DNA of 58,253 nucleotides, counting the filler, from Asterionella formosa (taxonomy: Eukaryota), in NCBI GenBank assembly GCA_002256025.1. It is 8 parts of 8 records of this genome, joined end to end, with 100 filler letters (N's around TTAATTAATTAA, not from the genome) between each part and the next. Parts side by side here need not be neighbours in the genome. Positions count along the whole stretch, not along the records: positions 21,908 to 29,103 come from NKIB01012504.1; 7 more parts are not named here. One strand, 5' to 3'. The translations under genes were made by a program, and so were the position numbers. Shown in pieces: positions 7,209-56,399 of this stretch (positions within the stretch are counted from its first letter, which is position 1; the number at the start of each line of letters is the position of its first letter). The notes under the pieces were generated by a model. That model was given only the letters and a program-made list of their open reading frames with translations, was not told the DNA's origin and did no database searches.

Positions 7209-7308
7209 NNNNNNNNNNNNNNNNNNNNNNNNNNNNNNNNNNNNNNNNNNNNTTAATTAATTAANNNNNNNNNNNNNNNNNNNNNNNNNNNNNNNNNNNN
7301 NNNNNNNN
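7209..7308. other. Artificial scaffold-joining linker
   Basis: N44-TTAATTAATTAA-N44, which gives stops in all six frames. Confidence 0.97.
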
Positions 7309-10210: not shown

Positions 10211-11663
10211 ATGAGAAAGGAAGGAGTCCAAGACGTGTCTGATTTTTGTTTTGACACTGATGACTCAGTTGCCCATCAACCGACTGCCCGGCCAACGAGC
10301 AACGGGAGGAAGAAGCGCCTTTTCATTGTCGTCATTGTTGTGATTTCCATTGCCATTATTGTCGGTGCTGTAATTGGGAGCAAGAACAAGAACAGCAGCA
10401 AAAGCAATGCTGCAGCCATGAAGACAGCTGGAGGACTGAGCATGAGGGAATTTCTTTCCACTGTCGCTCTTCAGCGTGGAGCAGAATTTGACGACCCCAA
10501 ATCGTATCAATCGTTAGCATTGCAATGGATGGAGAGCACAAATAATAGCAGTGTCCTATACTCCAATCAGACACTTATTCAACGATATGTACTGGCCTGC
10601 TTATACTACAATACGTTTGCTGTTGGCACATATTATACCGATGTTTCGTATGGGGAGGGGATTGTTCCGGATTGGGTTAATTCAAAATTCTGGATGACGA
10701 GCCAAGATGAATGTACCTGGTTTGGAATCAAGTGTAATTCGAATAAGGAGATTTCCGCAATTGACATGCCTACAAATAAATTGACTGGAAGTATTCCACC
10801 AGAAATTATTTTGTTGGGGAATAGTTTGGAATTTTTGGACATAAATTACAATGTTGTGTACAATGCTAACGAAGATTTGAATTGGATGGGCCATTTGACG
10901 AAATTGAGTGAGTCCTACTAGGCATGACGATTGGCCTTCATTCCATTGGATGTATCCACATTGAACTAACTTATACGAATGCCCTCATCTTTTCACTGTA
11001 GCCACCTTGCGGTGTGGTTCCTGCTACATTGAGTACTACGGAATTCCTTCATTTATTGGGAACCTCGTCCTTTTGACAGATCTTGATCTTTCTTATACTA
11101 TCATTCAGGGTCCCATCAATGGTCCCGCGTTTGCCACTCTGTCAAAGTTAACATACCTCGATATAGGAGGAAATTCGTATAAGTCCACAATTCCTTCCGA
11201 AATTTACACTCTTCCCCTCCTCGAACGACTGTACATTCAAGAAGCGGATATTAGCGGCAATCTGGAGTTCATCAAGGAAATGCCCAACATTTTTGAGATT
11301 TGGATTGATAGAAATCCAGGACTTAAGGGAACGATCCCGACCGAAATTGGATCGGTTTCATCGTTGGGTTCCATCTCGCTGTCAGGCTGCTCCTTTGAAG
11401 GTCCACTTCCCTCGGAACTTGGAGCCTTGACTGATATGCAGCAAATGTGGTTTTTCAGCAATCAGTTAACAGGTACAATTCCTTCGGGAATTAGTCAAAT
11501 GAAGTATTTGCTAAATTTCCAAACTGAAGACAATTTGTTGAATGGAACCATGCCAGCGGCGATATGCACTAACATAAACCAAGATTCGCTCTTTTTGGCA
11601 ACGGATTGTGCAAATGTCACTTGCTCTTGCTGTGATTGTTGCCAAGAACCATGTAACGGGTAA
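10211..11663 (+). CDS. Type II membrane leucine-rich-repeat (RLP-like) protein, 2 exons (10211-10907, 11002-11663), ~452 aa
   Basis: N-terminal TM helix, an LRR N-cap (WMTSQDECTWFGIKC), plant-type LRRs (NKLTGSIPPEI, NQLTGTIPSGI) and a C-terminal CxCC. Intron GTGAGT(10908)...CTGTAG(11001) joins the two ORFs in frame. Confidence 0.9.
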
Positions 11664-14510: not shown

Positions 14511-14610
14511 NNNNNNNNNNNNNNNNNNNNNNNNNNNNNNNNNNNNNNNNNNNNTTAATTAATTAANNNNNNNNNNNNNNNNNNNNNNNNNNNNNNNNNN
14601 NNNNNNNNNN
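14511..14610. other. Artificial scaffold-joining linker
   Basis: N44-TTAATTAATTAA-N44. Confidence 0.97.
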
Positions 14611-14827: not shown

Positions 14828-16699
14828 TTACTCTCGTTTTGATTTACGCTGCTTAGACGGTGATTTTGTCAATTCCGGCGCTGCTTCTAGTTTGGCCATA
14901 CAATTTTGTTGCAACCACCGTCCCAATGCTAACTTGACACCAAAGAGTACCAACCAAGCCACAATCAGCAATACCTTGCTTTCTGGTTGGAAATATCTCA
15001 TACCTTCCTTCAATAGTCGTAGCATGACGCAAACCAATGGAATTTGAGCAAAGCCAAGTCGTTTCACAACGGCGTGAGAATGATCTAAATTAACTCCCTC
15101 ATGTCCAATTCCTGTAACATCTCCAGCCAATAGCAAGGCATATTCAGGATAGACCGTCGACCGAATAAAGTTGAATTTAGTAATGAAGGAATGCTTCAAC
15201 CAGTCCGCCAACAATTCTGCACACCAGACAACTCCGCACATCCAAATATATTGTGTCTTGCTTTGTAAATCCATACCTTGCGAGATATTCAGCATAAGGA
15301 CTAATGTCAAGAATAATGCCAATTTGAAACGCTCACAAATATCGGACGCTGCAATTTTAAACAAATTGGGTTTGTTGTATTTCTTAAAGACTGTCGATTT
15401 GATCTCCGCAAAATTTCCCGATATTAGCAGCGTCAAGAGTGCTTGGTCACTTGAATTCATGGCAACATTCAATGTTGCTACATGAACGAACAATATTAAC
15501 GTATGGCATGCCGCATACACCAAGACCACCAAGGAACTGACTGCCATCCTTGTACTCTTTGGTTTCCGAGTTGTATTCCAATACATGGAATCCAAACAAT
15601 CTTGCCCCATACTACACATGAGTCGATCAAATACTTCCACAATGGCAATGCAGACATATAACTTTAGCATGGCTTGCCCTCTAATCCAATGATAGAGTTT
15701 ACCAATAGAAATGGGAACCAATACGAACCGGTACACAATGTAAATGATACTGACTTGAATCAATTGATACAAGTGTCTGTTATTATGATTTGTTGAGAGA
15801 GTGCGAGCGCTGACTACTATGAATAACACGAAGCAAACACTTTCTTGAACCACACGCAAACATATACATACACACTCTAACGTACCGTCGATGAAATTGA
15901 TATTCCGGAGTTTGAGGTTTTGTCCATCGTATTACCAGCAATAGTAAGCTCCATACTGCTCTTACTGGTAAAATGGTCAAGGTATATAAAAAACAGTCGA
16001 CGCAAATAATAATTCCAAAACTCAACAGCGCCTCAACTTGTGACGGAACGCGAACAAATTCTTCCATTTGTTGATCAACGTCAGGAGTTGATTCTTGAAA
16101 GCTATTGAGATAATCCATCCACTTGGCCTGAATGGATTTAGGTTCTTCTGTAGCAGTAGTAGTAGTTGCCACTTGTGTCATGCCAGTGCTAACCTTGTCA
16201 GAAGGAGAAGATGAATAGTCACAGCTTGAGCCCGCAAGTAGGGGTGCACTTATACTTAAATCTGTGATTGATTCATCATGCAATATTTTGGAAGAAAAGG
16301 TTCTACGATGTTGACTTTGATAGGGCAAGGGAGATGGTGAATCCAAGGCAGGGACTGTTGTGGAGGGTGACGGGGAAACATCTCGTGGTAGGGTTGGCGA
16401 CTGTTGTTGATCGAGGTTTGAGTTAGTTACCTAGTACTAGTTAGTAATGATAAAGGGTTCTTGTCCACACTCACGTGATGCAATGTAACGCGAGAACTCC
16501 GTTGGCGCTGCAAAAGTCGAGACAGTGTAGCTAACTTCTCCTCCAGTTCCGCCACCCTGTCTTCCAGTGACAGCTCTGAAGTAAACGGAGGCGGCGTGGA
16601 CGGCGCCGCTGCCCCTACTTGTTTGACTGCAATATGATGATCGTGCACTGACGGGGAGGATGGTACTGCCGGTGAGGCAACGTTGGGAGCCACCATCAT
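14828..16699 (-). CDS. TAPT1: TAPT1/EMP65 (DUF747) ER membrane protein, 3 exons (about 16699-16475, 16400-15886, 15776-14828)
   Basis: Motifs DCFLYTLTILP, YHWIRGQAMLKLY, NVAMNS..ALLTLLISGNFAEIKSTVFKK, DICERF and DWLKHSFITKFN. Intron 15885-15777 restores FHRRHLYQ. Intron 1 has donor GTGAGT at 16474 and an acceptor at 16401 (or 16431; both are in frame). Confidence 0.88.
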
Positions 16700-21807: not shown

Positions 21808-21907
21808 NNNNNNNNNNNNNNNNNNNNNNNNNNNNNNNNNNNNNNNNNNNNTTAATTAATTAANNNNNNNNNNNNNNNNNNNNNNNNNNNNNNNNNNNNN
21901 NNNNNNN
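21808..21907. other. Artificial scaffold-joining linker
   Basis: N44-TTAATTAATTAA-N44. Confidence 0.97.
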
Positions 21908-23731: not shown

Positions 23732-25522
23732 TTAAGGTTGCTGCATTTGAACCCCTAGCTCGAGGTAGGGTTAATAAAATATTATTGAGTCACACTAATC
23801 AAACTCGTACTTTTCACATATGAATCAAATATGTACAACTCTCAACGGAGCTTTCACCAATAGACACCCTTTCCATATGCTTAATAACAGTCTTCTGAAA
23901 AATTAGGGGTAGAGGTCAACTCTATATCGTCAGGATATAGGATCTGTCGAGAAAGTGCAGAAAAGGAACTTCGGTTTTGTAACTATTCTGAAAATCGTGG
24001 ATTTTACCGGGCCAAATCGTTTTTTTGGTCTAGTAAAAAAACCGGGGGGGGGGGAAGTTCCTTTCTGCACTTTCTCGCCGAAAGATAACTTCTGGGGCTA
24101 TAAAATATCACCTATGTACTTAACTCTTCTTCAAACCCTGCCAACGTTGGGGTTTTGTCGTCCAATAATTTTACAAAATCGGCCTTTTCAACGATCTAAA
24201 GAATGTCAGAATCAGAATCACTAATCACCGAAACGTCATCATCGGAATAAGAGTCTCGTGATTCAATTTTTCGTCCTACAATCTCCTGTACGAAAAACTC
24301 CATTGTAAGTACCCGCATCTCAAAAAAATTTGATTGGTAAAGTTCAATTACTTACCAACATTTGATTGGCCCGGTTTGCGCAGTCTTGCAAAGCCACGCT
24401 GGCCACACTGAACGCACACGTAACATTTTCTTGGGTGTTGGCTGGTACAATATCAACAGTAGTTTGTTGATCATCAGTGATCGTACGCATTGTAGTACTA
24501 GTACTAGAATGCACTTTGCCTGCATTAAATGGACAGAGTGTGCTGATTCTATTTTGATGATCATTGCGGCCACAATGATTGCAGACATTCATTCCTTTTT
24601 GTCTTGTTTCCTGATGTTCCCCTCTTAACGCAACACCAGAACCGGAAGTCTTACCTGAATTGTTGTCTTGCCTTTCTTGTTTGACTGTTTCAAATCGTGC
24701 TGCATGTATTTTTTCGTTTCGTTTCCTCTTTCTTCTGAATTGCGCTTTGTAGGCTCCATCGTCACTTCCTTGCTTCTCCTTGAGTCTCCAGAAGGATTCT
24801 AGCAGTGCTGACATCTGCATTCCACATTGCTCGCATACATCCCTTGTGTATTGCTTGTGTTGCCCCGCAACCGAAGCCACTCGATATTGAAGGCCTCCGG
24901 ATCCCGCAAACACCTTGTTTTTCGGACATCGTCACAACAATGCATTGTTCATTGCCTCATTAATCTGCGTGTCAAAGGGATGATGCAATGATAGCAGTTT
25001 TTCGCCTTCGACTTTCGTTGAAACATGCAACATCAACCATTCGTATAAATTTTTTCCTTTTCCTTGTCATGATATTTCCCGTTACTAACCATTTTTCCTG
25101 CTTTTACAGGGAACCATGTTTCAGAGCGGTAATCATGGCAGCCAAATAAATGATTTTTTAATCCTTTCAATGTTCTTGGCCATTGGAAGGATGGCTGTAG
25201 TTTCAATAACTCCTTATAGGACCATTTAGAAACAGCTCTAATAGTAGAATCATCATCGCAGATGATTGTAGAGTAGATAACATTGTTTTTCATAACTGCA
25301 TCAATCATCATTTCCACACCGGCGTCTGGATCCATTGCCTTCAAACTACCAGTTACATGATTCTTGGGACAAACATTTTCCTTGGTTGGTTTCTTGTACC
25401 ATATAGCCCTGTTGCACACATTGCACTCATGGTGGATTGTTGCGTTTTCGGTTATTAGTCATCAACAAATATTTGCCATGCCACCGGGTCGAATGACACA
25501 TAACATGTTGATTGTAGTAAAG

Positions 25523-25524
<2 letters not shown>

Positions 25525-25616
<92 letters not shown>
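25525..25616. repeat. (TA)n microsatellite, ~46 units
   Basis: Directly visible. Confidence 0.98.
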
Positions 25617-25620
<4 letters not shown>

Positions 25621-25626
25621 GAGCTA

Positions 25627-25842
25627 GGGGAATAGCAAAGTTGGTTAGCTCACCTTCCAAGGTGGTGGGTTCGATTCCCGCATTCTCCACCTGCTTTGTT
25701 TACGTAGTCCCTTGGGTTCCGGGTGATGAGGCAGACAACAAGCAGATCTAAGGCCCTCTGAGGGGCAAAGTGAGACTACACAACCTCCACAATTGTCGAG
25801 TTCTTTAATAATAGCGTACTATAAAATGTACTTAATAATTAT
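25627..25842 (+). mobile_element. tRNA-derived SINE (216 bp) with a 16-bp TSD
   Basis: Head GGGGAATAGCAAAGTTGG (A box) ... GGTTCGATTCC (B box, 25668-25678) ... ATTCTCCA, and an AT-rich tail. TATATACATCGAGCTA is repeated exactly at 25611-25626 and 25843-25858. Confidence 0.85.
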
Positions 25843-28744
25843 TATATACATCGAGCTATGTAGACTGCATATATATATTTAGCGAATTCGAAAAGGAATC
25901 TATGTAAATATTCGCGAATTTCCACTGATTTAAATATTTCAAATGGAATCATGTCATTCAAAATTATTCCATAGAAATTCATAGTTCCAGGGAGTTTCGG
26001 CAACCCTACTATCGTGCGTTGCATGAGTGCTTCTGATAAGCGCTGAAGGAAACTCTCTCGAGTCGGCGTTGCTTTGACGTAGTGCGAGTTTAATTTGCTT
26101 ATTTTACATTGACAATGCGCACTTACTTCAGCCTACAGCGGCGATGTTTATGGTTGCGTCATTTTGGTGCATAAGGATGGCGAAAACTCTTTTCGCTGTC
26201 ATTTCTTGGCCGATTCATACCTTCTCCGCATATGTACCATACGTACTTGAGTTGTCTTTCGCAATGATTTATCCTCTAAAACAATTTTATCTTGAACTTT
26301 TAAAATATGTAGTTGTAACATCAACTAGTTTTGTCTTGGAAATCACTGTATGATTCTGAACCATCACATGAAAACCTGAAAGAGAAGTCTTGTTCACTAT
26401 AATAGTTCATATTATTAACGTGAAGTGCACAACTATAAACTGTAGTTTGTCCATGCATGAAATAAGACACCACAAATATCCTTCCTACTATTTCACAAAT
26501 AAAGATGCATGTAGTAAATAAATTAGCCACAAGAGCAGGATATTAGTTGAACTTTGAACTGAATTATTTGAAATATCAACTAATTCAGTCTCGAGTTCAA
26601 AGTTCATTGTGAAAACTTCACATGAAACCGTTAAAAGTAACCTTTTTTACGGGAAGAGTGGCATTAATTCATGTCAAGTACCCCATCATTAACACTCCTA
26701 CGTAAATGAAATTTCGAAAAGTGGCGTATTTCGCGGCTTAGATGTAAGCAATATTTTAATTTTTGCCTATGGGTTCAAATGCAGGAACCTTAACATAGAT
26801 TTGTAAATGTCAATTTTAGCTCACTATAACCCATTATATAAAATATATTTCGTATATTCCTATCTTTCACATCGAAAATTGCAATGGGTCCGATATTGCC
26901 CATCATTAATTTTTTTTTATATTGCCTATGTTCGCATTTTGGCGTTACGATTTGTAGCAATTGCCCCTCGGTTTTCCAGCCCTGGGAATGCCAAAACTGG
27001 CAAGGGGTCTCCTTAAGGAAACCATTTTATTTACTCTACAGATTTTAATAATTTATATCTAGAATTCACCTTGTTTTTGTTCGTCGCCTGAAAAATGACT
27101 CCGGCAATTCACCTTACACCCTGACAATCATCGTCCAAAATGTCCAGTCTGAGCGAAATTAGTTCATTGATGACGCCAGCAGGGATTCGTTGTCGATTGG
27201 ATGCGGTCGGTTTTTGGTTTGCTTGTCTTCTCTTGGGATTCATGTAGTCACATCGTCCATATTTCGTTGTACAAACGATGACATCGGTGCATATCTGAAG
27301 TTGGTGGCAAGTTTTTACTCCGGTCATGCATGTGATAATGCTTTACGGATATGCTGGTCATCTAGCCTACATACTTACATACGTGGTACTCAAAACAACC
27401 ATGCATGGTTTAAGCTAAACTTTAACGCTTACTTTGAACACGTTATAACATGTAAGCTGTTGACTCGGTATTATCTTTACGAGACCAGAATGTTAAATTA
27501 TATCGTTCAAATATTGATTGATTTTACATACCGTTTGCCCGATTTCGTCCTCACAATTATCCTTCTCACTCTATCCTGCCTGCCGTTGCTCTCAGCTTGG
27601 GTTCGCAACCGGAACCTTCCAATTTTCTTTTGATCCCATTGTCAGCTGTAGTATGTTATGCTAGCTAGAGCGGATCGGTGAGTACAACAGTGAAACAATG
27701 AATGTGGAATGTAGATACTTTTTGTCGAATTTCCGATTTAGTTGCTTCCATGGTCCGTTTTGATCGCTTGTTCCGCACTGTCGTTTTGTTTCTATTGTAT
27801 CTATCTACATAAGAACCAATGTATTTATCGAAGACTAATTTTTGAAGATGTATTGTCGTTGATTGTATTTGTTGATTTGTATAGTCGTTGACCAGCCATC
27901 ATGATGTCAATATTGCCGCCAAGCAATGCTTTTTTGTACTAACGCGCTTTGCTACATTTCTACTACGAGTTCGTATCACAAGCTACGTTTAAATATTCAG
28001 CTAGAGGGAGTCGATAGTGATGGATCTTCCTGGTGATCACGATCAATCAGAACAGATTGTAATGGAATGATCAGGGCTGTTTGATGGGAGGAACGACTGT
28101 GGATGGAAGGACTGCAAGCAACTTGGGTCAGGCTACTACAGCGATGTTCATGGTTACAGCAACCAGATCATCTGCGCTACATCACGATGCAGATTTTAAT
28201 TGTGTTGAGCTTTCTTCTTCTCATCTGTTTCATTTCGCTCTTCGATGGTGTGGTGGAAAGTCATTGTTGCCTGTGTAAGTGCTACAATGCATATGTCTCA
28301 TCTGAAACTCCTATTTTTTACTGTCACTAACCCAATACAATTTTTTCAATTTCTCATTTGATGCTACTTATTACATCGCATTTAATACGTTGGTTGCTCC
28401 AAACATCATGTTCAATTTTCATTGATATTGCATGTTACAATTATTCTCGTGTGTTTGATGCATGTTTTACTATTTCTATATATACCGTATTACCGTTATT
28501 CTGGCTGTCTTGCTAAAATTGGCAATTTAAATGCCGAAAAATCCGATGTACCCCATATTGCCCCTAAATAAAAATTACTTAAGAAAATACTTAGAGACTA
28601 AAAATTACTTAGAAGTACCCGAATGGCAAGACGATAGCTGGAGCGGGAATTGCTGGCACAATGCAAACTGCAGACATATTCTCGTGCAATGCTGCTTCCC
28701 TCTTCTGATGATTTCCTCAATGTTCGACATCGTCATCCCTAACA

Positions 28745-29103: not shown

Positions 29104-29203
29104 NNNNNNNNNNNNNNNNNNNNNNNNNNNNNNNNNNNNNNNNNNNNTTAATTAATTAANNNNNNNNNNNNNNNNNNNNNNNNNNNNNNNNNNNNNNNNN
29201 NNN
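29104..29203. other. Artificial scaffold-joining linker
   Basis: N44-TTAATTAATTAA-N44. Confidence 0.97.
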
Positions 29204-29226
29204 CCATTTTCTGATGAGTGGTGATC

Positions 29227-30417
29227 ATGACGCCATCATATGCTCTTGGCCTCTTCTTCATTGCTTGTGTTACAATCATATGGAGCCTAGCTAGCATTGT
29301 TATTCAATTCCTGTACACGGTCAAGGATTTCAATTCTCCCTTTCTGCTAACTTACATCGGAACGACACTCTTTACTCTCTTTCTTCCCACACGGCTGTTA
29401 TGGGAACGCGCGCCTTGTTGTCGAGCTGCGAATGGACATGTGGTTGTTCCATGGAGAACAGACAATGTTTATCACAACATTCCATCAACAGTCCCCAATG
29501 CCATTGCTGACAGCGATCATACTACTACCACTACTACTTCATGTTGCACTACAACTACCGGTACTTCCCAACCGACCCAACGACTGCAACATGATGTACC
29601 ACAGAACGAACCACCTCGCATACTGTCACACCAGCAACACTGTATCATTGCACTCAAAATTGCTCCCGTATGGTTCATTGGCAATTGGGCCTACAACTCA
29701 TCTCTTGCCACAACGAGCATTACGTCATCGACCGTCTTGGCATCGACAGGAAGTCTATTCACGTTTTTATTTGCAGTCTCTTGTGGTGACGAGAAATTTA
29801 CAATGCTGAAACTCGTGGGAGTGTTATTGGGAGTCGGAGGTAGTATAATAACGGGATGGAAGGATACCGAGTCATCCACAGGCCAGGACGCCGTGTGGGG
29901 TGACGCCCTAGGACTCGCGTCGGCTGTGGGCTACGGAACGTACACGGTCATGATTCGAGTGCTGTGTCCAAAAGACGAACGTGCCATGTCAATGCAACTT
30001 TTGTTGGGATACATTGGACTTTGGAATGCAGTGATCCTGTCCCCCATTGCCGCCTATATTGTGCTACAGCAAAGAAGCGCTGCGACATCATTAACTTTAG
30101 TGGTGCTGGGATATCTAGTGGCACAGGGATTGCTAGATAATGTACTGAGTGACTATCTGTGGGCGAGAGCCGTGATACTCACGTCGGCAACGGTGGCAAC
30201 AGTGGGACTTGGACTAACCATTCCTCTGGCGTTTGTATCCGACTGGATGTTGGGACATGGAGATGTAAAGTCTGCGGCTTCCATCGTTGGAGCACTGGCA
30301 GTACTCGCAGGCTTTGTTGTTGTTAATTTAGAGGGTGTACAGCAAGACAATCACTTACAGGATGAAAGCGACGAGGAGTTGGAAGAGATACCGGTAGATA
30401 ATTATGGTCTAGAATAA
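29227..30417 (+). CDS. DMT/EamA superfamily transporter, SLC35F5-like
   Basis: ~10 TM segments, with FNSPFLLTY, WFIGNWAYNSSLATTSITSSTVLAST, GDALGLASA and VLSDYLWARAVILTSATVATVGLGLTIPLA. Confidence 0.88.
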   Translation: MTPSYALGLFFIACVTIIWSLASIVIQFLYTVKDFNSPFLLTYIGTTLFTLFLPTRLLWERAPCCRAANGHVVVPWRTDNVYHNIPSTVPNAIADSDHTTTTTTSCCTTTTGTSQPTQRLQHDVPQNEPPRILSHQQHCIIALKIAPVWFIGNWAYNSSLATTSITSSTVLASTGSLFTFLFAVSCGDEKFTMLKLVGVLLGVGGSIITGWKDTESSTGQDAVWGDALGLASAVGYGTYTVMIRVLCPKDERAMSMQLLLGYIGLWNAVILSPIAAYIVLQQRSAATSLTLVVLGYLVAQGLLDNVLSDYLWARAVILTSATVATVGLGLTIPLAFVSDWMLGHGDVKSAASIVGALAVLAGFVVVNLEGVQQDNHLQDESDEELEEIPVDNYGLE

Positions 30418-36394: not shown

Positions 36395-36494
36395 NNNNNN
36401 NNNNNNNNNNNNNNNNNNNNNNNNNNNNNNNNNNNNNNTTAATTAATTAANNNNNNNNNNNNNNNNNNNNNNNNNNNNNNNNNNNNNNNNNNNN
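36395..36494. other. Artificial scaffold-joining linker
   Basis: N44-TTAATTAATTAA-N44. Confidence 0.97.
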
Positions 36495-39400
36495 CCCCCC
36501 CCCACTCCCACAGTGAATCAGAAGAAAACCCCATCGAAATCCTCCCTCACCAACCTCACAAAGACAAAAAAACAAGGCTCAGTCAACATGTAATACTTAT
36601 TTTAAGCGCCAGCCGCTTCCATCATCAACCCTCCCCTCTTGCACAGAGCCCACTCCTACCTCTCCCTCTTGTTCTGATTATGGCAACACGAAGAAGCGCA
36701 CTGCAACGGCCGGAACCACCACTGATCCATCACCCAATCCTGCTCCAAAGCGCAACTCTACTGTCTCCACTGGCACGACTGTATTTCCTGCTACCTCCCC
36801 CTCTATTCTCCCTCCACCCAGCACCGCCAACTCTCCTCCCGAAGCCTCCTTCCTTCAAGCCTGGCTCTTCTTCAGTGTTCCCCTCCCACAGATCACTCCA
36901 CTTCCAGTTCATTATTCCTCTGATCAAATCGCAACAACAGTCCGATCCCTCCTCACCGCCATATTCTTCCATGATCGCTATGCTCTTTTACTCTCTGTCA
37001 CTGGAAAACCTGACAAGCAGATCACTCGGGACTCCCCAATACCCACTTCAGTTGCCTCGTGTCAATCATTTATCCGACTCAACAATTTTTCGTCTCTTCT
37101 CCGTGGTGGTCGCACACTCCCAGACCATGTAGTCAAAGGCCGAATTCATCTTCGTACCTGTCAACCCATTCAATCTCTTCTAACTACAGTAACCACTTCC
37201 CACCCTCAATGGACAGTGCGGCGCGACCAATTTCATGGAGATGTCCCAGTTGACTGTGGTTGGTTACTATACTCGTCCAAAAAGATGAACCGTCTCGCTA
37301 TACAATCGCAACTAACAGCATTGGCTTTCGCAGAGCTACAGATTGCAATCCCTTTTGTCTGCCTTTGGAGGCAAGTCGATGGCCCTGGTCGTTATCCCTC
37401 CATCTCCACATATACTATTGTTATTTGCACTTCCCCACCCTATCAGTCCAATGCACGTCGTCTTCTCCAAGAAATCTTGTCACCTGATGAACAGTCGAAG
37501 TTCCCTACCAGGTTCCCATTCCAATGCACCATGATTTTCCTTTCACCACACTTTTTAGGTTTATCAGACCAGTCATACGCTCAAAAGATGCAAGAGCAGC
37601 AAGAATTTCAAGCCAATAACGAGGCAGTCCGCATCACTGGTCTCCTTCCCCTCACACACATCTTTCCTGACACATTTGAAACCTTAGGCGGCTCACTTCT
37701 TAGCTTCCCCGAACCCTCTCCTGGCTCCCATTATCTTCTTTGTAGCATTGAAACAGATCCAGCCAATCCATCTGTACTCTTTTTTTGCACTCACTATTCT
37801 AATGTTAGCTACCTAGAATCTCTTATAGAAACTCTCTTTCCAACTCTGAGACAAATCTATCCAACCTTGACCCCCGAAGATGTGTGGCTGGCACCTGACC
37901 ACCACCACACCACTCAAACATTGGAAGATCTCCTTTCTCACTCCAACACAACTCTCTCTCATCTTCTCGATTTCACCCCCTATGGCCTTTCTGACATGCC
38001 GGCTCTCCCCAACCCAACCTCCCACAATAGGTCCCGACCTGTCTCACGCTATGGTAAAGGCGGCAGAGGGCGCCGAAACCATAGAGGATCCCTCCCTTCC
38101 CCCTCTGCCCACTCATCCAATCACCCTCATCCCTCTGACACAACATTTCCGGCCCTGACCCCCAATCCATGGTATAATTCTCCACCTTCACTTTCCAGTA
38201 CCACACTATCCACGGCATTTGAATCCACCACAAACTCCGAGCTCCAATCACTGACCACTACATTATTAAGGCTTCAAGCCCAAGTTGACACTCTGACTAC
38301 TCATATTGCTACTCAAGTCCCTCTTGCCCCTACTCCCCCATCTGACACCACGGATATCGCAGCATTAGACATCAGCCTGGAGCACTCAACACCGCCTTTT
38401 TCCCTCTCCGCTCTCCGCGCAGCCATTGAACCCACCATAAAGTTTCCCTGCAGGAAGAAGTACTACCTCAACTCTCTGCACTCATTACAAGAGAGGTATC
38501 AAGCACAATCAATTCCTCTGAATTTGGTAATGCCATCTCTGAAAATATCCGCCAGCAACTAGTCTTTCACTTCCACCCCTCTGCCTCCCAAATCTCAACA
38601 GCAGAGTCGTCTCAACCCACACCTATGATAACTGGGGGAGACGACAGCGAAGATTAGTAGGCTTGGCAATTCTGCTCCTCTTGGTGAGCAGATGACGCCG
38701 CCTCCATCCCAAGCATCATGGACACAAAGAATCTCCCGACACTTTCAACCCACCTCTGACTTTACTTCTCTTCGTACAACTGTTCAACCACAGAACTCAT
38801 GGGGAGATCCACTACAAGAGCCCTCCTCTTGTCATATCCGCATCTTATTTCAGAACTGTAATACTTTTAACAGAGATTACTATGAACAATTCACCTATCT
38901 CAACCAGATAGCATCACTTCACCCGACAGTAGTTGGTCTCTCTGAAACCAATATTAACTGGTCCAATCACTCCACTCATCAATCTATCACCGATTCAATC
39001 AAGGCCCGATGGCCCCACCGTTGTTTAGCGACAGCTCACACCCCCAATGCTGTTCCCTTGACCACTATATCACAGGCTGGAGGCACATTACAATTCGTCA
39101 CAGGCAGATGCAGCGGAAGAGTTCTAGCCACAGGTAGTGATCCTCTTGGCAGATGGAGCTACCAGACACTCCGATCACACTCTCATAACCGCCCGACATT
39201 TATAACAGCTTATCGAGTCTCTCAGAATCAAAGAACAGGCCCACAAACAGCATATGAGCATCAGCGTTCCCACTTAATTGAACATTACAAAGACAATAAC
39301 CCCAATCCACGGCTCTCAATGCTTCAATCTCTCCAAACATTCATTATTTCCCTTACAGCCAAAAATCATGAAGTACTCTTGATGTGGGATGCAAACTCTC

Positions 39401-41175
39401 TTGCGTCAGATTCTGATATCGCCCTCTTTCTGCGTACATGCTCTCTCACTGATCTTCTATCCTCCCGCGGCATTCCATCCCATGCATCAACCTCTTCCAG
39501 AGGACGCCACATTGACTTTATCCACGGCACTCCACTTCTCCTCTCAGCAGTCCGAAGGGGTGGGATTCTGAGTTTTCACCAAAGCCCCCACAGCGATCAT
39601 CGAGCGCTCTATGTAGATCTCGACGAAAAACTCCTCTTCCAGGATAGCTCGACAGACCCCACTGCTCCCAGCCACCGCCTACTCCGTCTTAGCAACCCAG
39701 GCCAGTGTGCCAAATATCTAGGGGCAGTCAACGAATACCTTACCTCGCACAAAGTGTTTGATCGACTCAACCTTCTTGTCCATCTTAATCTTTCACACAA
39801 CTCCTTACAGGAAATTCAAGCAGCTTATGAATCACTCGACAGAGATATCACAGCAGCTCTTCTGAATGCTGAACGACGATCGGCCCGAGCTTCATATGGC
39901 TATCCCTGGTCCCCCTAACTGATGCGCTGTAGACAGGACTACCTTTCTTGGAAAAAGCGACGCTCCGATTTTATCCGCTTTGGTGATTCTCTGGCAAGCC
40001 TATCAAATCTCTCTACTCTTAAATTTCCAGACCTACCCACCCTCCTTGACCATAGACAGGATCTAGATTACCTGACAAATTGTCTTCAAGCTTCCCGTCC
40101 AAAGCTTAATGAGTGTCAGGCCCACTCGAAATCACTACGCACAGCACATCTTGAAGAACGAGCATTATATGCAGCTCAAACATCAGATTGTAAGGCAGAA
40201 ATTGCTCTGAACAACATCCTCAAGGCTGAAGACATTCGCCGAACCTTTCAAAAACTTAGAAAACATGCAAAAGGGCAACACCACTCTACCCTCCAACGAG
40301 TGGAAATGCCACTTCTACACCCAGATGGATCTCCCACTGGGGCAACCACCTCTATTTCCAATCCTGCACAACTGTTCACAGCGATTATCAATCAAAACAA
40401 AGAACACTTCAGCCAGGCCACCTCTTCCCCCGGAGCTAGTGGCCGCCTGAGCACTTTCATTCCGCCATTCTCCCGGAATCAGTACACAGATGAAATATTG
40501 GCAGACACTTTCGTCACTCCCAACATTGACCCTATTGAGGAGGTTAGCCTCTTTCTTCAAGCAATGGCTAAACCCATATCTCTCCAGGGCATTGATTCCA
40601 TTGATATCACCATCACTGGAGAGAATTTTCGATCTAGCTTCAAGAAACTCCCTGAACACACAGCGTCCAGCCCCTCTGGCCATCACCTTTCCCACTACAA
40701 AAATCATGCTCGAGATGAACGGCTGTCTGGTCTAATTGCCATGATGATCAGTATCCTTTTTAGAATTGGCTTTGCACCACGTCACTGGCGCACTGCTATT
40801 CAGATTATGCTAGAAAACGATTCAGGGGAGCCCCAGATACACCGTTTGCGAGTCATCCAGCTACTCGAGGCAGATATGAACCTGGCCTTTCGACTCCTCT
40901 GAGGCAGGCGACTAGTATATCATGCCCTCTCCTATGACGTTCCTACAAATGGAATTTTGGTAATCTTCCTGGAGCCAGCTGCCTGAGTGCACTCCTCTTA
41001 AAAGTGGTCTCCTATGATTATATTCGCGCTCGCCAAACCACAGCCATTGTTTTCAATAATGATGCTAAGACCTGCTACGATCGGGTTATTCCATCCTTGG
41101 GATTGATGGCCACAGAGCGTTTTGGGATTCCGCCTTCTGCAGCCACCTATATGCTAGCTATTATCTTTACAATGA
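36495..41175 (+). mobile_element. Non-LTR retrotransposon (LINE, Ambal-like): decayed ORF1 (~36680-38560) and ORF2 with APE endonuclease and the start of RT; 3'-truncated
   Basis: APE motifs RILFQNCN, GLSETN, DPLGRWS, WDAN, IDFI and SDHRALYVD. RT motifs SSPSGHHLSHYK, LRVIQLLEADMN and NDAKTCYDRV. In-frame stops at 39916 and 40900, a frameshift at ~40940, and a C-rich strand bias. Confidence 0.88.
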
Positions 41176-43684: not shown

Positions 43685-43784
43685 NNNNNNNNNNNNNNNN
43701 NNNNNNNNNNNNNNNNNNNNNNNNNNNNTTAATTAATTAANNNNNNNNNNNNNNNNNNNNNNNNNNNNNNNNNNNNNNNNNNNN
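43685..43784. other. Artificial scaffold-joining linker
   Basis: N44-TTAATTAATTAA-N44. Confidence 0.97.
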
Positions 43785-46980: not shown

Positions 46981-49206
46981 TCAGGAAGTGGTACCATCAG
47001 CCAATATAGTCTCAAATGCTGCAACCGAACTCCGAATGGGCGATTCCACGTCGCCTTGTTGAAGCGAGGCATTTGGAGGTGTATCAAGTATCTTGTTATT
47101 ATTGTTCCGCCTTTGGATGATTTCTACCGCATCCCGCCCATGAAAAAGGGCCGCATGACCCTTAATTGAGAGAAATGCTGTAATGGTGGCACTGGCCATG
47201 ACAACGAAACCCAGCAGGGAAAAGGACGGGTGATAGTCATATTCACGAAAAATAAATGCAAACACAACCCCTCCGACATTTCCGCCAGCTCCAACAATGC
47301 CTGCAACTGAGCCAGTTGCGGCGGAATCGACATAGGTGACGATCCCGTATGTTGATCCTGTGGCCGCCTGGACAAGGATGCTCAAAACAACCATGGCGGT
47401 AATGGCACCTCCCAATGTGCTGGTGGTCGAAAACATGACAGCCATGACGCCTTCCAAAAAAAGCACAATAGCTTGCACCCATAAACGTCCTCGCATCCCA
47501 AATTTGGCATTTGCCATGTCAGAGGTAAAACCCCCAAGGCCTCTGGCAAACAAGTTGGTCCAACCAAAAATAGAAGCAATGCCTGCGGCAGACTCAGTCG
47601 AGAGGCCATACTTTTCTTTAAAATCTAAACGTAGGTTTTGGAGTTGACCATGTATATGGTAACATTTGTGTCAGTGTCGCGTTACGAATATTACCTCCAA
47701 GGATGTCATCATCAAACATCACTTACAGAGCGCAGAGGCATTGACTATTGTGATTTCAACTCCAAAACAACATCCATACTGTACAAACAGAATCCACGTA
47801 TTTGAGTTCCAAAAGGCACGCTGAAGGGCATTCAGGGCCGACACGGGGGGAAGGAGTCCCTGGCGGTACCTTTCGCGAACGTTTCCCTTTGGTGAATCAT
47901 CCGAGTAATTGAAAACGATATAAGCTAAAATAGCACACATGCAAGCTGGCACAACACAGACCGTTCTCCAGGCCAGATCAGCTGCCCTTTCATTGGCCCC
48001 GACTTGATTTTCTCCACTTGTTAGGTGTCCACCGTAAATCAATTTGAAGAGAGGAAACAACACAGATCCCATGACAACCTGGGTCACGCCTCCTCCTAGG
48101 TTTCCCCAGCCGGCCACCAACGCATTGGCTGTTCCGGCCACCTCTTTTGTAAACATACTGTATGTCCAATACTGACTAGTAACGAACGCAGACCCAGCGA
48201 CTCCAATGAACAATCGTAGGACATTTAACCCTGTGGCCGTGTGAACCAACCCTGTCAATGCCGTTGGGATGGCCGACAACAGTAAGGTTCCCGACATTGC
48301 CCACCGCGCTCCAAACTTGTCACAGAAGGGCCCATTGAAGATGCGTGTCACAGCCGACCCAGCGACGCCGTAGATGCTCGAAGTCCATATTTGTCGTTTA
48401 GTCAAATGCAGGGATTGCTGAACTTCGGTCAAGAGAGGTGTAATGGCAAACCAAGTGAAGAATGCCACAAAGAAAGACATCCATGCCAAATGAAAGGCTC
48501 GCATGTGAGGACGAGCCCAGCTTCCCACGGGAATTTCGACAGCCCGATCCTCTTGGCTAGCATCGACCAGGCAGGCGTAGAGACTGTGCTGTTCGACGGT
48601 AGAGTCGCGTGCCTGTGCTGCTGGGAAAGGCGTGTCAATATGGATTGGATCATCGAACGACCAGTCCGTTTCCGAGTAGCTAGAGTTGTATGATTCTGCA
48701 GTGTCACATCCCATCTCCGCATCATCTACGATATCGTCATCTGCCACATTAGGAGGGCTAAAAGAAATGCTGGAGTTATATGGCTTTGCAGCTTCATTTC
48801 CAAACTCAGGAGCATCCACTACGTCAAAATCTGCGACAGATATTGGCCTTGTTACATCTTCATACTCTTGTAGCCGCCATGAATAGGATGGATTCCAAGC
48901 TCGTAGCCGAGATCGCTTCGTCGCTGCTGATGGACGTCCCGGCAACTGCAATCGTGCGGCCTCTTGGTGAATTGAGCGAGGATGATGAAAGCCTTCGTCG
49001 AATGACGAGACCGTCGATGACAACGAACCGGCATCCTCCGGGACCTGTTCTCGTCGTATGTGAACATGTTGTGGTACAGGAATTGTTCGCGCTGCTGTGA
49101 CCAATTCGCGGTTATCGGCCGCCAAATATGCCGGCATTTCCGTGACACAAGCTGTCTTTACTTCTTCGGTTTGCGTGTTGGCGTCCTGCTCCTCATGGCC
49201 TGTCAT
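46981..49206 (-). CDS. NRT2: High-affinity nitrate transporter (NNP/MFS), 2 exons (49206-47727, 47624-46981), ~707 aa
   Basis: RPHMRAFHLAW, the NNP signature AGWGNLGGG, YGCCFGVE, FGWTNLFARGLGG and GIVGAGGNVGG. Intron GTAAGT(47726)...TTTAG(47625) restores ALYFKE. Confidence 0.93.
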
Positions 49207-49968
49207 TCAAAATTGTCCTATGTTTGAAACCCGTCAATGCTTTCGCTCTTTAAATTGGGAATGAAGACAATTGAATGGACGCTGTAGTCAACACAGTACC
49301 GGTTACGTGCATACCGTTGTTTCAAGTGTCAAGTATCAACTACTTTAGTGTTGATGGTGGCCAATCTGTCGGTATGAAACCGGCATCTGGAAGTCTTACC
49401 AATCAAGATGACATCTTGAACAAAATTACATATTTAGCTATACAAAAGCATCAAATTTACGACAAGGGAATGGCAGGCACTGACAGCTGACACGATATGC
49501 CACGAACACCATACTACCGGTACTGGGTGTACCAGATACCAGGTACCAGGTGGTGTCATGGAGGGTAGAAGGGGGGTACCAGGGTGCCAGGTAGTTATAT
49601 ACTATAAATATGTACAGGTACCGGAGTGTAACCGATGCTCCAGTTACCTGGACGAACTGGCATGCAGATGTTGAGGGTCGTTCTTATCATTTTTTTTCGT
49701 GTATCACGGAATTTGAATTTTTTTGAAAATGTATCAGCAACGGTAACTCGATTTGAACTGAATTTCATTCATTCCAAAAGTGTCACTGTATCACTAATTT
49801 GTGATCACATTGTATCATGGAGTAAAATGAATCTTCAACGGCAACAGGCTGGCGAAGATCATGTGTATATCCCTCCAGAATATAATGATGGTCTTGATAT
49901 CAAGCAACAACAAAATATAATTACCGGGAAACTAAATATAATATTAAAAACACACATTTGCATGAATC

Positions 49969-50972
49969 ATGTCGTCGCCATTTGATTTACTTGATGATAA
50001 TGACGATGACAGTAGTGATCTTGATTTCTTCTTCCTCTGTCATTTAACTAAGGAAGCAGAGGAAAAAGAACACTCATCCAAACGACAAAGGCGACGCTGT
50101 AAACGGCAGCTTCAGTCATCTGAACGACGACGACAACGAAGGCACAAGTGGCACCACGAAAGAATCTCCTGGCAATCACATGTCGAGAAACTCAATCACG
50201 AGATTGCTTTCGAGAAGACATACAGAATGTCACACAGAGCATTCAAAAAACTCACCTCCATGCTGGAAATTCAGATTGCAGGGAATTATTCCAAATGTGG
50301 CACTTCTGAGCCCATAATTCCCGAAATTGTGGTAGCCATTGGTTTGCGATGGCTGGCTGGTGGCAGTTACATCGACATTCGTCATGCCTACGGTTGTAGC
50401 ATTGCTTCACTTTATCGATGTCGTGATTTGTTCATTGATGCTGTACTAAACTGTGAAGAACTCGAAATTATTTTTCCAAAAGAAAAAGAAGAATTTATCA
50501 AATTGGCTTCCAGCTTTGAATGCAAAAGCTCAGAGGGCGTGATGAGAGGATGTGTTGGTGCTATTGACGGCTTCCTTGCCACCATCAACCGCCCGACTAT
50601 AGTTGAAAGTGGCAACAACCCTGGTTCATTTTTTTCCGGTCACTACATGACTTATGGAATCAATGTCCAGGCTGTTTGTGATGCTGACTCAAGATTTATT
50701 TATTTTGGTGTAATTGCACCGGGAAAATGCAGTGACCAAGTAGCTTTTGAAAAAACTTCCATTTTCGATCAAGTTGCAGCATTCAACACAGGTTTTTATC
50801 TGGTCGGCGATGCAGCTTACACATTGTCTGATGTAATGCTTGTTCCCTTTGTTGGCTCACAACGTGATGATCCAACACAGGATACATTTAACTTTTTCCT
50901 TTCACAGCTAAGGATAAGAATAGAAATGGCATTTGGTCTTCTTCAGACAAAATGGTGTGTTCTGAAAAAAAA
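49969..50972 (+). mobile_element. PIF/Harbinger (DDE_Tnp_4) transposase, uninterrupted, 3'-truncated by the scaffold end
   Basis: FEKTYRMS, LRWLAGGSYIDI, CVGAIDG, INVQAVCD, VGDAAY and FNFFLSQLRIRIEMAFGLL. Confidence 0.9.
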
Positions 50973-51072
50973 NNNNNNNNNNNNNNNNNNNNNNNNNNNN
51001 NNNNNNNNNNNNNNNNTTAATTAATTAANNNNNNNNNNNNNNNNNNNNNNNNNNNNNNNNNNNNNNNNNNNN
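50973..51072. other. Artificial scaffold-joining linker
   Basis: N44-TTAATTAATTAA-N44. Confidence 0.97.
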
Positions 51073-53680: not shown

Positions 53681-54397
53681 CAAGCAAATTAAACCGGTAC
53701 AAATTGTGTCCATTCTTATAGTCTGAGTGCGAAAATTGGACAACTTTACCGAACCATAAAGTTTAATTGACAATCTGCCTCATCACAGTGGCACCAAATT
53801 GGAACTCAACAAAACCCTCACCATTCAACAAATTTGAGGGAAACAAATTATTTTTGGTAGTATAGTAGAATATTTTCCAAGCTGAGTGAAAGACTTCAAT
53901 TTAAATCAGCTCAAAAGCACAACAATGCGACCCGCTGCCTCGACTCTGCCTCTTCAGGGAGTGTGTATCAAACCCTTCCCCACCGCCTTCCAGATACTGG
54001 TTAGGTTAAATATTTCAATAATCTGGGCTGTGAATGCCAGGAGAGCGCCATGCAGGCTGCTCTACTAGCTATTCCTTAGGCAGTTTTAACATGCCAGTTT
54101 ATAAACAATGTTACATTATTTATTAAATGGTAAAATTTCTTTTTCGAACCTTGCTTCTTTTAAAAAGCAACTGAGTGTGATTTGAACAATGATGCTATGA
54201 TGCTTTGTATATGTTAAAGTCTACTAGGCCGAGAGGTTCTCAAAATGTATTTATTTGGTGGATTCATGACAAAATTGAGTGATAGAACACATATGTGTAC
54301 ATCCCAGTATTTTTATTGACAATGCAACAATATAACTATTGAAATGTTTCTTTGTGTTGTAGAAATTTGTAGAAATTCAGTTTCGTCCCTTGTTCGC

Positions 54398-55999
54398 CAA
54401 TGGTGGATTCGAAAACACAGCAGAACTACATGTAATGAAATATGATGCAGCAATGAAGACAAAGAATGCGGCTGCATGGAAAGTTGCTGTAGATGAAGAA
54501 CATGATCGTATGGTGAACAAAAATGTTTGGAAACCTATTGACAGAGCAAAGATTCCAAGTAATTCAAAAGTACTGACTTCAACGTGGGCAATGAAGAAGA
54601 AAGCAAGCGGAAAATTTCGAGCTAGGCTGAATGCAAGAGGATTTGAAAAAGTAGATGGTATTCATTGTGACAAGAATACAAAATCAGCTCCAGTCACAAA
54701 TGAAATTACAATTAGAATTGTATTCATTTTGATGGTAATGGGAAGGCTGTATGCTGAATTATTGGATGTTCAAGGTGCATTTCTCAAAGGAGAATTTGCT
54801 AATGGAGAATCAATTTATATGGAGGTACCTCAAGGTTTTGAGAGGCATTATAAAAGGAATGATGTTTTGTTGTTGAAGCGAAATATCTATGGGTTAGTTC
54901 AGGCAGCATATGCATTCTGGAGGGAACTTGTGAAAGCATTTTATGATATGGGATATATGAGGAGCAAAGCAGATCCATGTTTATACTTTGCGTGGACTAC
55001 TAATGGATTAATTATGTGGTTATCTTGGGTTGATGATTGCTTGGTGGTTGGTAAGAAAGAGGAAGTTTTAAAGGCTAAGAAGAAAATGATGAGAAGATTC
55101 GATTGTGATGAAGTTGGACCGTTGAAGGAATATATTGGATGCAAAGTGGATTACAATCCTGATGAGGGCTATGTGCAACTGACTCAACCAGTGTTGTTGC
55201 AAAGCTTTGCTGATGAGTTTGAGTTACCCATAGGTGACAATACAATTACTCCCGCGGTGCCAGGTGATGTTTTGAGGAAAGGAAAATCGACCGAAATGTT
55301 ATCTGTCAAAGAAATGACAAAATATAGGTCTGGTGTGGGAAAATTGTTGCATTTGATGAAATGGTCTAGACCAGAGATCATGAATTGTGTTAGAGAGTTG
55401 TCATGTTTTATGATGGAGGCATTAGGTGCACATATTCAAGCAATGAATAGAGTCATGAAATATTGCATTGGAACTCCTGATCGTGGTTTAAAGTTAAAAC
55501 CAAGTGGTAGATGGAATGGTGATCCAAATTATGAGTTCGTAATTTCAGGCATGTCGGATTCAGATTATGCCAAGGATCCGGATAGGAGACGAAGTGTCAG
55601 CGGATATGCTACATTTTTGAATGGGACACCAACATCTATGAAAAGTAAAATGCCATCGTGTGTTACATTGTCTGTGACAGAAGCAGAATTGGTTGCAGCC
55701 ACGCAATGTGCGCAGGATATGCTGTATGTCATGAGGGTTCTAGAGTCAATGGGACTCAAGGTGAAGAAACCAATGAAACTGAGCATTGATAATAAAGGTG
55801 CAGTCGATCTAACGAACAATTGGAGTGTTGGAGGTCGAACTCGTCATGTGGATGTGCGATATTATTTTTTGCGTGAATTAAAGGAAGAGAATGTCATAAT
55901 CTCTGAATGGATTGGTACAAAAAACAATCATAGTGATTTATTCACAAAGAATTTGGCAAGAAATTTATTTGAAAAGCATACTGCAAAGTTCTGTGGTAA
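54398..55999 (+). mobile_element. Ty1/Copia pol fragment: reverse transcriptase plus RNase H, uninterrupted
   Basis: KFRARLNARGF, LDVQGAFL, YMEVPQGF, IYGLVQAA, SWVDDC, SDSDYA..RRSVSG, SVTEAE, IDNKGA and RTRHVDVRYYFLRE. Confidence 0.93.
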
Positions 56000-56399
56000 G
56001 GCTCCAAAGACTACCTTACTCAAGTCAAGGTTTCTCAGATTGTAAACTAATTGTAATTATATCTAAACTATCAATCCTGCCAACTGGTCCTGCCAAACTT
56101 AATCCTGTCAAATTCAATCTTACCAAATACAATTCAAGACTTCTACTCCAACTAATTTTGATCCCACTGTCAGTCCCATGAAACATTTCACGACTTGACT
56201 CATCAGACTCTCAACATCAACCGGAGTCTTTATAGCCTCCAACACCCTCCCCTTGAGAGTCTCTATCTTCATGGCTCTTCATATACTTATCATTACCACA
56301 GAACTTTGCAGGATGCTTTTCAAATAAATTGCTTGCCAAATTCGTTGTGAATAAATCACTATGATTGTTTTTTGTACCAATCCATTCAGAGATTATGAC
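55994..56399 (-). mobile_element. Inverted Copia 3' end: RNase H tail, PPT (56245-56254) and 3' LTR (56244-55994)
   Basis: Minus strand reads VIISEWIGTKNN..FCGNDKYM, then AAGGGGAGGG|TGTTGGAGGCT ... AGCCTTACCA. Confidence 0.85.

Follow-up and report, generated by a model that had tools for sequence, protein, structure and literature searches.

Short interspersed elements (SINEs) were long thought to be absent from most unicellular eukaryotes, and the available text of three genome reports describes them in a few diatoms, with roles unknown (PMC5859163, PMC7466962, PMC8147415). The closest described systems are the stringent SINE/LINE pairs, 58 of which are reviewed in PMC3747384; those named in its main text include tobacco TS with RTE, maize ZmSINE2 with LINE1-1_ZM, and Chlamydomonas SINEX-3 with L1-1 and SINEX-5 with RandI. 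The words 'diatom' and 'Ambal' do not occur in the main text of that review (PMC3747384).

A stretch of 58,253 nt from the diatom Asterionella formosa, hereafter the window, was analysed to follow up an initial annotation that had reported a tRNA-derived SINE between direct repeats. SINEs are in general transcribed by RNA polymerase III (Pol III) from internal A and B boxes, bound through their tails by the ORF2 protein of a LINE and copied by target-primed reverse transcription. The copy in the window, its genomic family, the origin of its head and the LINE sharing its tail are described below.

Sequence data and comparison sets

Separate contigs are joined in the window by artificial spacers of 100 nt (runs of N around a 12-mer), and neighbours across a spacer are unlinked. 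The SINE copy lies on contig C12504. All features are listed in Table 1, together with the loci of related elements elsewhere in the genome. For the nitrate transporter, on another contig than the SINE, the homologues named include those of the diatom genera Mayamaea, Seminavis, Epithemia and Thalassiosira, as fits a diatom host.

The window SINE was searched against its own genome, and the best 30 of 413 candidates were used as the set of loci. The tRNA comparison set consisted of 36 distinct tRNAs called in 29 loci from an Rfam search listing 62 matches. Thirty of 45 LINE loci were gathered using the ORF2 C-terminal protein alone. The RT-proximal 120 residues of the LINE in the window gave 77 genome matches, of which 20 loci were fetched.

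Table 1. Features of the window and loci of related elements
Feature	Position	Strand	Remarks
LRR	10965-11660		Pfam
DUF747	14831-15931		Pfam
Decayed Kolobok-like DNA transposon hosting the SINE	23736..26789	-	TTAA on both sides, 18/19 terminal inverted repeat, GG..CC ends
(TA)46 microsatellite at insertion site	25525..25616	.	far shorter in twin and empty sites
Left TSD, 16 bp	25611..25626	+	first 6 nt within TA run
SINE insert, 216 nt	25627-25842		
tRNA-Ala(AGC)-derived head, 63 nt	25627..25689	+	7-bp acceptor stem with G3·U70, discriminator A, D arm, shortened anticodon arm, T arm
A box	25633..25644	+	two changes from the family majority in the window copy, element positions 11-12
14-nt hairpin in place of anticodon arm	25651..25664	+	3' strand = tRNA variable region; no anticodon
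B box, within T arm	25668..25678	+	
Core common to 235-nt sister SINE family	25690..25747	+	predicted long hairpin
LINE-related 3' tail	25752..25840	+	GC hairpin ~25753-25766, then conserved motifs up to A/T-rich end
Right TSD	25843..25858	+	
EamA	29218-30414		Pfam
Broken, 3'-truncated LINE, another contig of the window	36517..41170 (end approximate)	+	member of tail-bearing clade; own tail absent
MFS nitrate transporter	47722-49206		Pfam
DDE_Tnp_4 transposase	49966-50970		Pfam
RVT_2 (Copia-type RT)	54363-56042		Pfam
Spacers	7209-7308, 14511-14610, 21808-21907, 29104-29203, 36395-36494, 43685-43784, 50973-51072		
1.2-kb elements	L098, L102, L107, L109, L116, L118, L123		contigs C14168, C761, C6381, C7833, C13204, C12788, C9945
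Sister SINE loci	L195-L206, L060, L120, L133		

Structure of the window copy

Both 16-mers reported as target-site duplications (TSDs) were exact, and the sequence was absent from the rest of the window (two forward and no reverse matches); the 216-nt insert, the acceptor-like stem with which it starts and the A and B boxes were likewise present as first described. The exactness of the TSD thus stands, with the reservation that the outer edge of its left copy is soft because of the overlap with the (TA)46 run. For the non-TA 10-mer of the TSD alone, the chance of such a match was ~3e-5 in a 30-position search. The element itself is ~214 nt long plus a short T run, and its ends are not inverted repeats. 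No run of four Ts occurs inside it, which is compatible with Pol III transcription.

Genomic family and target sites

Forty of the 413 candidates from the own-genome search were scored, and in all 40 the match extends over positions 14-212 or more of 216 (identity 86-100%). A motif of 19 nt where the core meets the tail (≤1 mismatch) was found at 89 genome sites, some of them twins, versus none for a reversed control; 89 is a lower bound, because the motif catches 25 of the 30 loci. The 5' end was intact in 27/30 loci, which comprise 23 independent insertions and four twins. A TSD of 11-20 bp with a score of at least 10 was present at 16 of the 23 insertions and was weak or absent at the other seven, while among 702 mismatched flank pairings nine scored ≥9, eight of those being twin loci. 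TATA or ATAT was found 10-26 nt upstream of the SINE in 19/23 insertions versus 12% of control windows. The genome search proposed by the initial annotation thus bore out its expectation of many copies with a common 5' end and differing TSDs (89 motif sites, 23 independent flanks), and the SINE is confirmed as a real, dispersed multi-copy family with TA-rich targets.

A metagenome scan with the head motif gave four loci, three with the shared core and none with the tail of this SINE. Of four runs examined for expression, all in the form of contigs, those of RNA contain copies of the family; they establish no Pol III transcript, because the flanking repeats are included and two copies lie at the ends of 2-kb contigs. 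In one contig, guessed to be RNA and represented by a single record, an A-rich loose end follows position 25840.

Kolobok-type elements are marked by a TTAA TSD and 5'-RR..YY-3' termini, according to the available text of PMC9587614, and the termini of the transposon hosting the window copy (Table 1) fit this description. No Pfam transposase match was obtained for the host element, in whose broken frames transposase-like motifs were judged by eye. Empty sites, which the initial annotation had suggested looking for in other copies of the host, were found: five host copies are without the SINE (L033, L034, L040, L041 and L044), and the target site is single-copy in L044 and L041. One and the same end of the Kolobok-like family received four of the 23 independent insertions, as fits a TA-rich target; these (L007/L018, L011, L023/L025 and the window copy) are found within or next to a shared terminal stretch of a few hundred bases, in both orientations. 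A 736-bp high-copy repeat at ~26009-26744 is inserted in the host end in the window and is absent from other host copies.

Age of the window copy

The insertion had been taken to be recent on account of its unmutated TSD and the intact CpG in its B box, a view that the comparison with other copies overturned. Identity of the window copy to the family majority is 93.9%, the 30 loci, which are the matches most like the query, having a median of 94.2% (range 90.7-97.7%). Contig C5962 carries the same insertion, with one mismatch in its TSD. Between this twin and the window copy, 7/216 aligned bases of the SINE differ, in addition to 7 gap positions, and 55/1,484 positions of the downstream flank differ, a divergence of ~3.5%. 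Ten departures from the majority, including the two in the A box, are common to both. The perfect TSD is not evidence of a fresh jump, because the C5962 twin has diverged and TSDs are perfect at seven other loci as well. The window copy is ageing rather than fresh, and is probably not a source copy. The C5962 twin (L002:690-880 and upstream of L002:1375) retains host sequence lost near 25420 in the window, and it carries a 5'-truncated piece of the 1.2-kb family within the host.

Origin and predicted fold of the head

Compared with the 36 genomic tRNAs, the head matched tRNA-Ala(AGC) best, with a score of 64.5; the next reached 39, and the sole Gly(TCC) of the set, which is probably organellar, nuclear Gly tRNAs lying outside the set, reached 33. 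A head profile likewise found tRNA-Ala(AGC) at E 2e-7, versus 0.015 for the next tRNA, and 29/32 nt of the 3' half of the head match a tRNA-Ala(AGC) of the same genome (L070). The G3·U70 pair and the discriminator A73 are alanine identity marks, and the head carries both. It derives from the tRNA-Ala(AGC) of this genome. In the alignment to that tRNA, ~10 nt are missing from the anticodon arm and the variable region is retained, so that the variable region described initially as almost absent is present and the anticodon arm is what was shortened. ARAGORN found no tRNA genes in the window, and Rfam gave no tRNA match there, either at the gathering score or at E≤10, in agreement with the earlier expectation that the head would not be a functional tRNA gene.

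A four-arm mini-cloverleaf was predicted for the head of one copy, L003 (z -2.64; 2/200 shuffles), and a different fold was predicted for that of the window copy. The stem of the hairpin replacing the anticodon arm is kept in the sister family. When the fold was laid over 10 family and 10 sister copies, 96% of the cells pair; in these 20 rows from two SINE families, no pair changed on both sides, and head covariation was not above shuffles. Folding of the whole element was no better than for shuffles (z -0.28; majority sequence z -1.4).

Related non-coding elements

Two kinds of non-coding relatives were found. The sister SINE of ~235 nt agrees with the present family in head and core as far as position ~120 and again over the final ~30 nt, and differs in between; its core is predicted to fold strongly (z -4.7), and its search gave 558 candidates. 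One decayed sister copy (L060:1267-1400) lies ~230 bases upstream of a tRNA-Asn gene. The second kind, non-coding elements of ~1.2 kb, end in the same tail as the SINE, with no LINE ORF2 match found upstream of the elements, and have a fixed 5' start, 7 of the 10 examined beginning with the same 8-mer. They are pyrimidine-rich, contain an internal duplicated motif and fall into at least three subfamilies.

The tail and its probable partner LINE

The initial annotation had named an Ambal-like LINE family on another contig of the window as a candidate partner and suggested aligning the 3' end of the SINE to LINE 3' UTRs. No match of the SINE tail to the LINE in the window itself was found, because that LINE is 3'-truncated. 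Elsewhere in the genome, a profile of the SINE tail found a sense-strand match no more than 200 nt past the ORF at 27 of the 30 loci gathered by ORF2 protein (best E 4.5e-11, weakest 0.014), and the three ORF2 loci without a match break off early. The best antisense match was 0.01, and none of 20 shuffled sets reached 8 bits. Conversely, a profile of 16 LINE tails found window positions 25769-25845 at E 8.2e-10, the next match being at 0.71. Of the LINE tails, that on C13292 aligns best to the majority SINE tail, with 71 of 91 columns identical, and this contig has an RT upstream on the same strand. Among the 20 loci fetched with the window LINE, the top three tail matches (L125, L127 and L128) are close relatives that reach the end of ORF2, and at 15 loci of a distant RT clade, whose true ends are unmapped, no tail match was better than E 0.8.

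Judged by these alignments, the last ~90 nt of the SINE are homologous to LINE 3' UTRs of one RT-RNase H clade, to which the LINE of the window belongs, and this clade is probably the partner that copies the SINE. The proposed partnership thus holds at the level of the clade, with Ambal membership assumed. Similarity between the SINE tail and the closest LINE tails is only ~70-78%, and they part over the final ~10 nt, so the partner is assigned to the clade and not to a subfamily.

All LINEs of this clade that were found are either broken or cut by contig ends, and none is intact at full length. ORF2 of the clade aligns along P0122, a protein of 1,930 aa (tblastn), and carries RT and RNase H motifs; its Atlas features point to RT (0.95, with a Pfam share of only 15-31%) and RNase H (0.93). 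Pfam RVT_1 did not match the clade, the endonuclease (E 0.018) and zf-RVT (E 1.7e-4) matches were both below the Pfam cut-off, and searches of the PDB with the LINE proteins gave no matches. We take the LINE to be Ambal-like by its domain order, namely a long ORF2 with AP endonuclease-like, RT and RNase H parts as well as a zinc-binding part.

The SINE, the LINEs and the 1.2-kb elements all retain a GC hairpin where the tail begins; 21 of its cells changed on both sides, versus 0/500 shuffles, but the 27 rows compared represent only three related groups. Covariation of a longer tail stem, predicted in three separate folds, was not above shuffles, and when folded alone, the SINE tail did not surpass its shuffles (L005, z -1.2; window copy, z -0.5). 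There is no tandem repeat at the very 3' end and no terminal repeat common to SINE and LINEs.

Two other RT-bearing sequences were considered and set aside. One is a GC-rich, RVT_1-positive endonuclease-RT LINE with a poly(A) end and long open frames, seen as many 98-99% identical contigs of 1-3 kb (L075-L093, 19 of the 20 fetched, L087 excepted); it was rejected as the partner on the evidence weighed below. These contigs represent a very young family or, alternatively, come from another organism whose DNA entered the assembly. The other, an RVT_1 match on C10287, is a 1,058-aa open frame (L087:4333-7506, minus strand) that resembles a telomerase reverse transcriptase by motifs judged by eye, and was not retained as a LINE.

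Proposed mechanism and alternatives

We consider it likely, with a probability of roughly 0.85, that the element is a non-autonomous, tRNA-derived SINE assembled from three modules, in which the head comes from a tRNA-Ala, the core is the one also found in the sister SINE, and the tail was acquired from the 3' UTR of LINEs of an endonuclease-RT-RNase H clade in the same genome. Source copies would be transcribed by Pol III from the internal A and B boxes, with transcription stopping at the T run that follows the SINE. The LINE ORF2 protein may then bind the SINE RNA through the shared tail, with its GC hairpin and conserved motifs, nick DNA at TA-rich sites and copy the RNA by target-primed reverse transcription, staggered nicks giving rise to the TSD. 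The window copy would have landed in the TA-rich end of the Kolobok-like element before the locus split into C12504 and C5962, and would have decayed since.

The alternatives concern both ends of the element and its nature as a SINE. That the element is a MITE, part of the host DNA transposon or the product of a segmental duplication might be read from the clustering of four insertions in one Kolobok-like end and from four locus pairs with common flanks; the variable TSD lengths, the ends lacking inverted repeats and, decisively, the 23 distinct flanks and the host copies without the SINE rule this out and leave it a probability close to nil. Nor is it much more credible that the head is a tRNA-Gly(TCC) gene, a pseudogene or a Gly-derived sequence, as was thought at first. 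The letters TCC do occur in the loop of the short arm, but that loop has 4 nt rather than 7 and is changed in the sister family. The absence of any tRNA call and the Ala score, identity pair and discriminator base all point away from Gly, and even with the nuclear Gly tRNAs outside the comparison we hold such an origin highly improbable.

More weight attaches to how the tail was acquired and used. It may be a relic, the SINE having last been moved by another LINE that recognises an A/T-rich 3' end only, such as the young GC-rich poly(A) family or a member of the distant RT clade; the ~78% ceiling on LINE identity, the differing extreme ends and the presence in the assembly of near-identical GC-rich pieces with long open frames lend this some colour. 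Against it, the GC-rich LINE ends in poly(A), which the SINE lacks, and shares with it a 13-nt match at chance level only, no convincing tail match was seen at any of the 15 distant-clade loci, and the tail motifs and GC hairpin have been kept in the SINE, the LINEs and the 1.2-kb elements alike. We regard it as improbable. The tail could also have been taken from the 1.2-kb elements, as non-coding LINE-dependent donors, instead of directly from a LINE, by the same mechanism. Local alignment of the SINE tail scored 91 for LINE L184, 87, 85 and 85 for 1.2-kb elements and at most 70 for other LINEs, and the SINE hairpin stem is more like that of the 1.2-kb elements; yet the best match of all is to the end of a LINE, and for the sequence that follows the hairpin L184/L183 are the nearest. 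This route is possible but on balance unlikely, and it would leave the enzyme copying the SINE unchanged. Direct descent of the tail from the LINE clade is accordingly preferred as the source of the third module.

A more far-reaching reading is speculative and, taken whole, rather doubtful: that this would be the first stringent SINE-LINE system of a stramenopile and the first case of a SINE paired with an Ambal-type RT-RNase H LINE, that one structured 3' signal might serve the LINE, the 1.2-kb elements and the SINE, and that the anticodon-less Ala head might be a selected mini-tRNA fold, processed or charged as a mimic of tRNA-Ala and more than a promoter.

Comparison with known systems

As tRNA-derived SINEs (SINE2/tRNA) are described in the available text of PMC4455052, the present family resembles them in its tRNA head with A and B boxes, unique body, 3' tail, variable TSDs and non-coding nature. 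It differs in that the anticodon arm is cut to a 14-nt hairpin with a four-arm fold still predicted, in having neither a poly(A) nor a tandem-repeat tail but only a short T run, and in its diatom host. With the stringent pairs, as presented in the main text of PMC3747384, it shares a stretch of ~80-100 nt of LINE 3' end on a tRNA-headed SINE and a hairpin with a variable stem. The UCU loop and downstream CGAG reported there for maize both occur in several of the tails described here, which is a resemblance only. The tobacco TS tail is called 'nearly identical' to that of its LINE (PMC3747384), in contrast to ~78% here, and no terminal repeat common to both partners was seen in this SINE/LINE pair.

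Putative SINEs of the same class have been reported within the same lineage, from Phaeodactylum (PMC5859163), Cyclotella (PMC7466962), PMC8147415 and Pleurosigma (PMC12803021). The available texts are confined to counts and classes and name neither a tRNA parent nor a TSD or partner LINE, and the comparison with them is by description only; supplementary repeat libraries of diatom genome papers might hold the present family. No diatom or stramenopile SINE described with a tRNA parent or a partner LINE was found in the literature searched, most subscription journals and Repbase Reports lying outside its coverage. The Ambal clade is named in the available text of PMC4455052 and PMC12803021, and the partner LINE is likened to it by domain order only, hence 'Ambal-like'.

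The analysis adds a genome-wide test of the tail on LINE loci selected by protein. Now that its tRNA parent is named and its TSDs, empty sites, target preference and LINE tail are described, the family passes from an automated label to a defined system, in which the shared tail offers an RNA signal that can be tested in a LINE type little studied so far and the insertions offer presence/absence markers for strains. The design of the SINE is familiar from textbooks; the group in which it occurs has barely been described.
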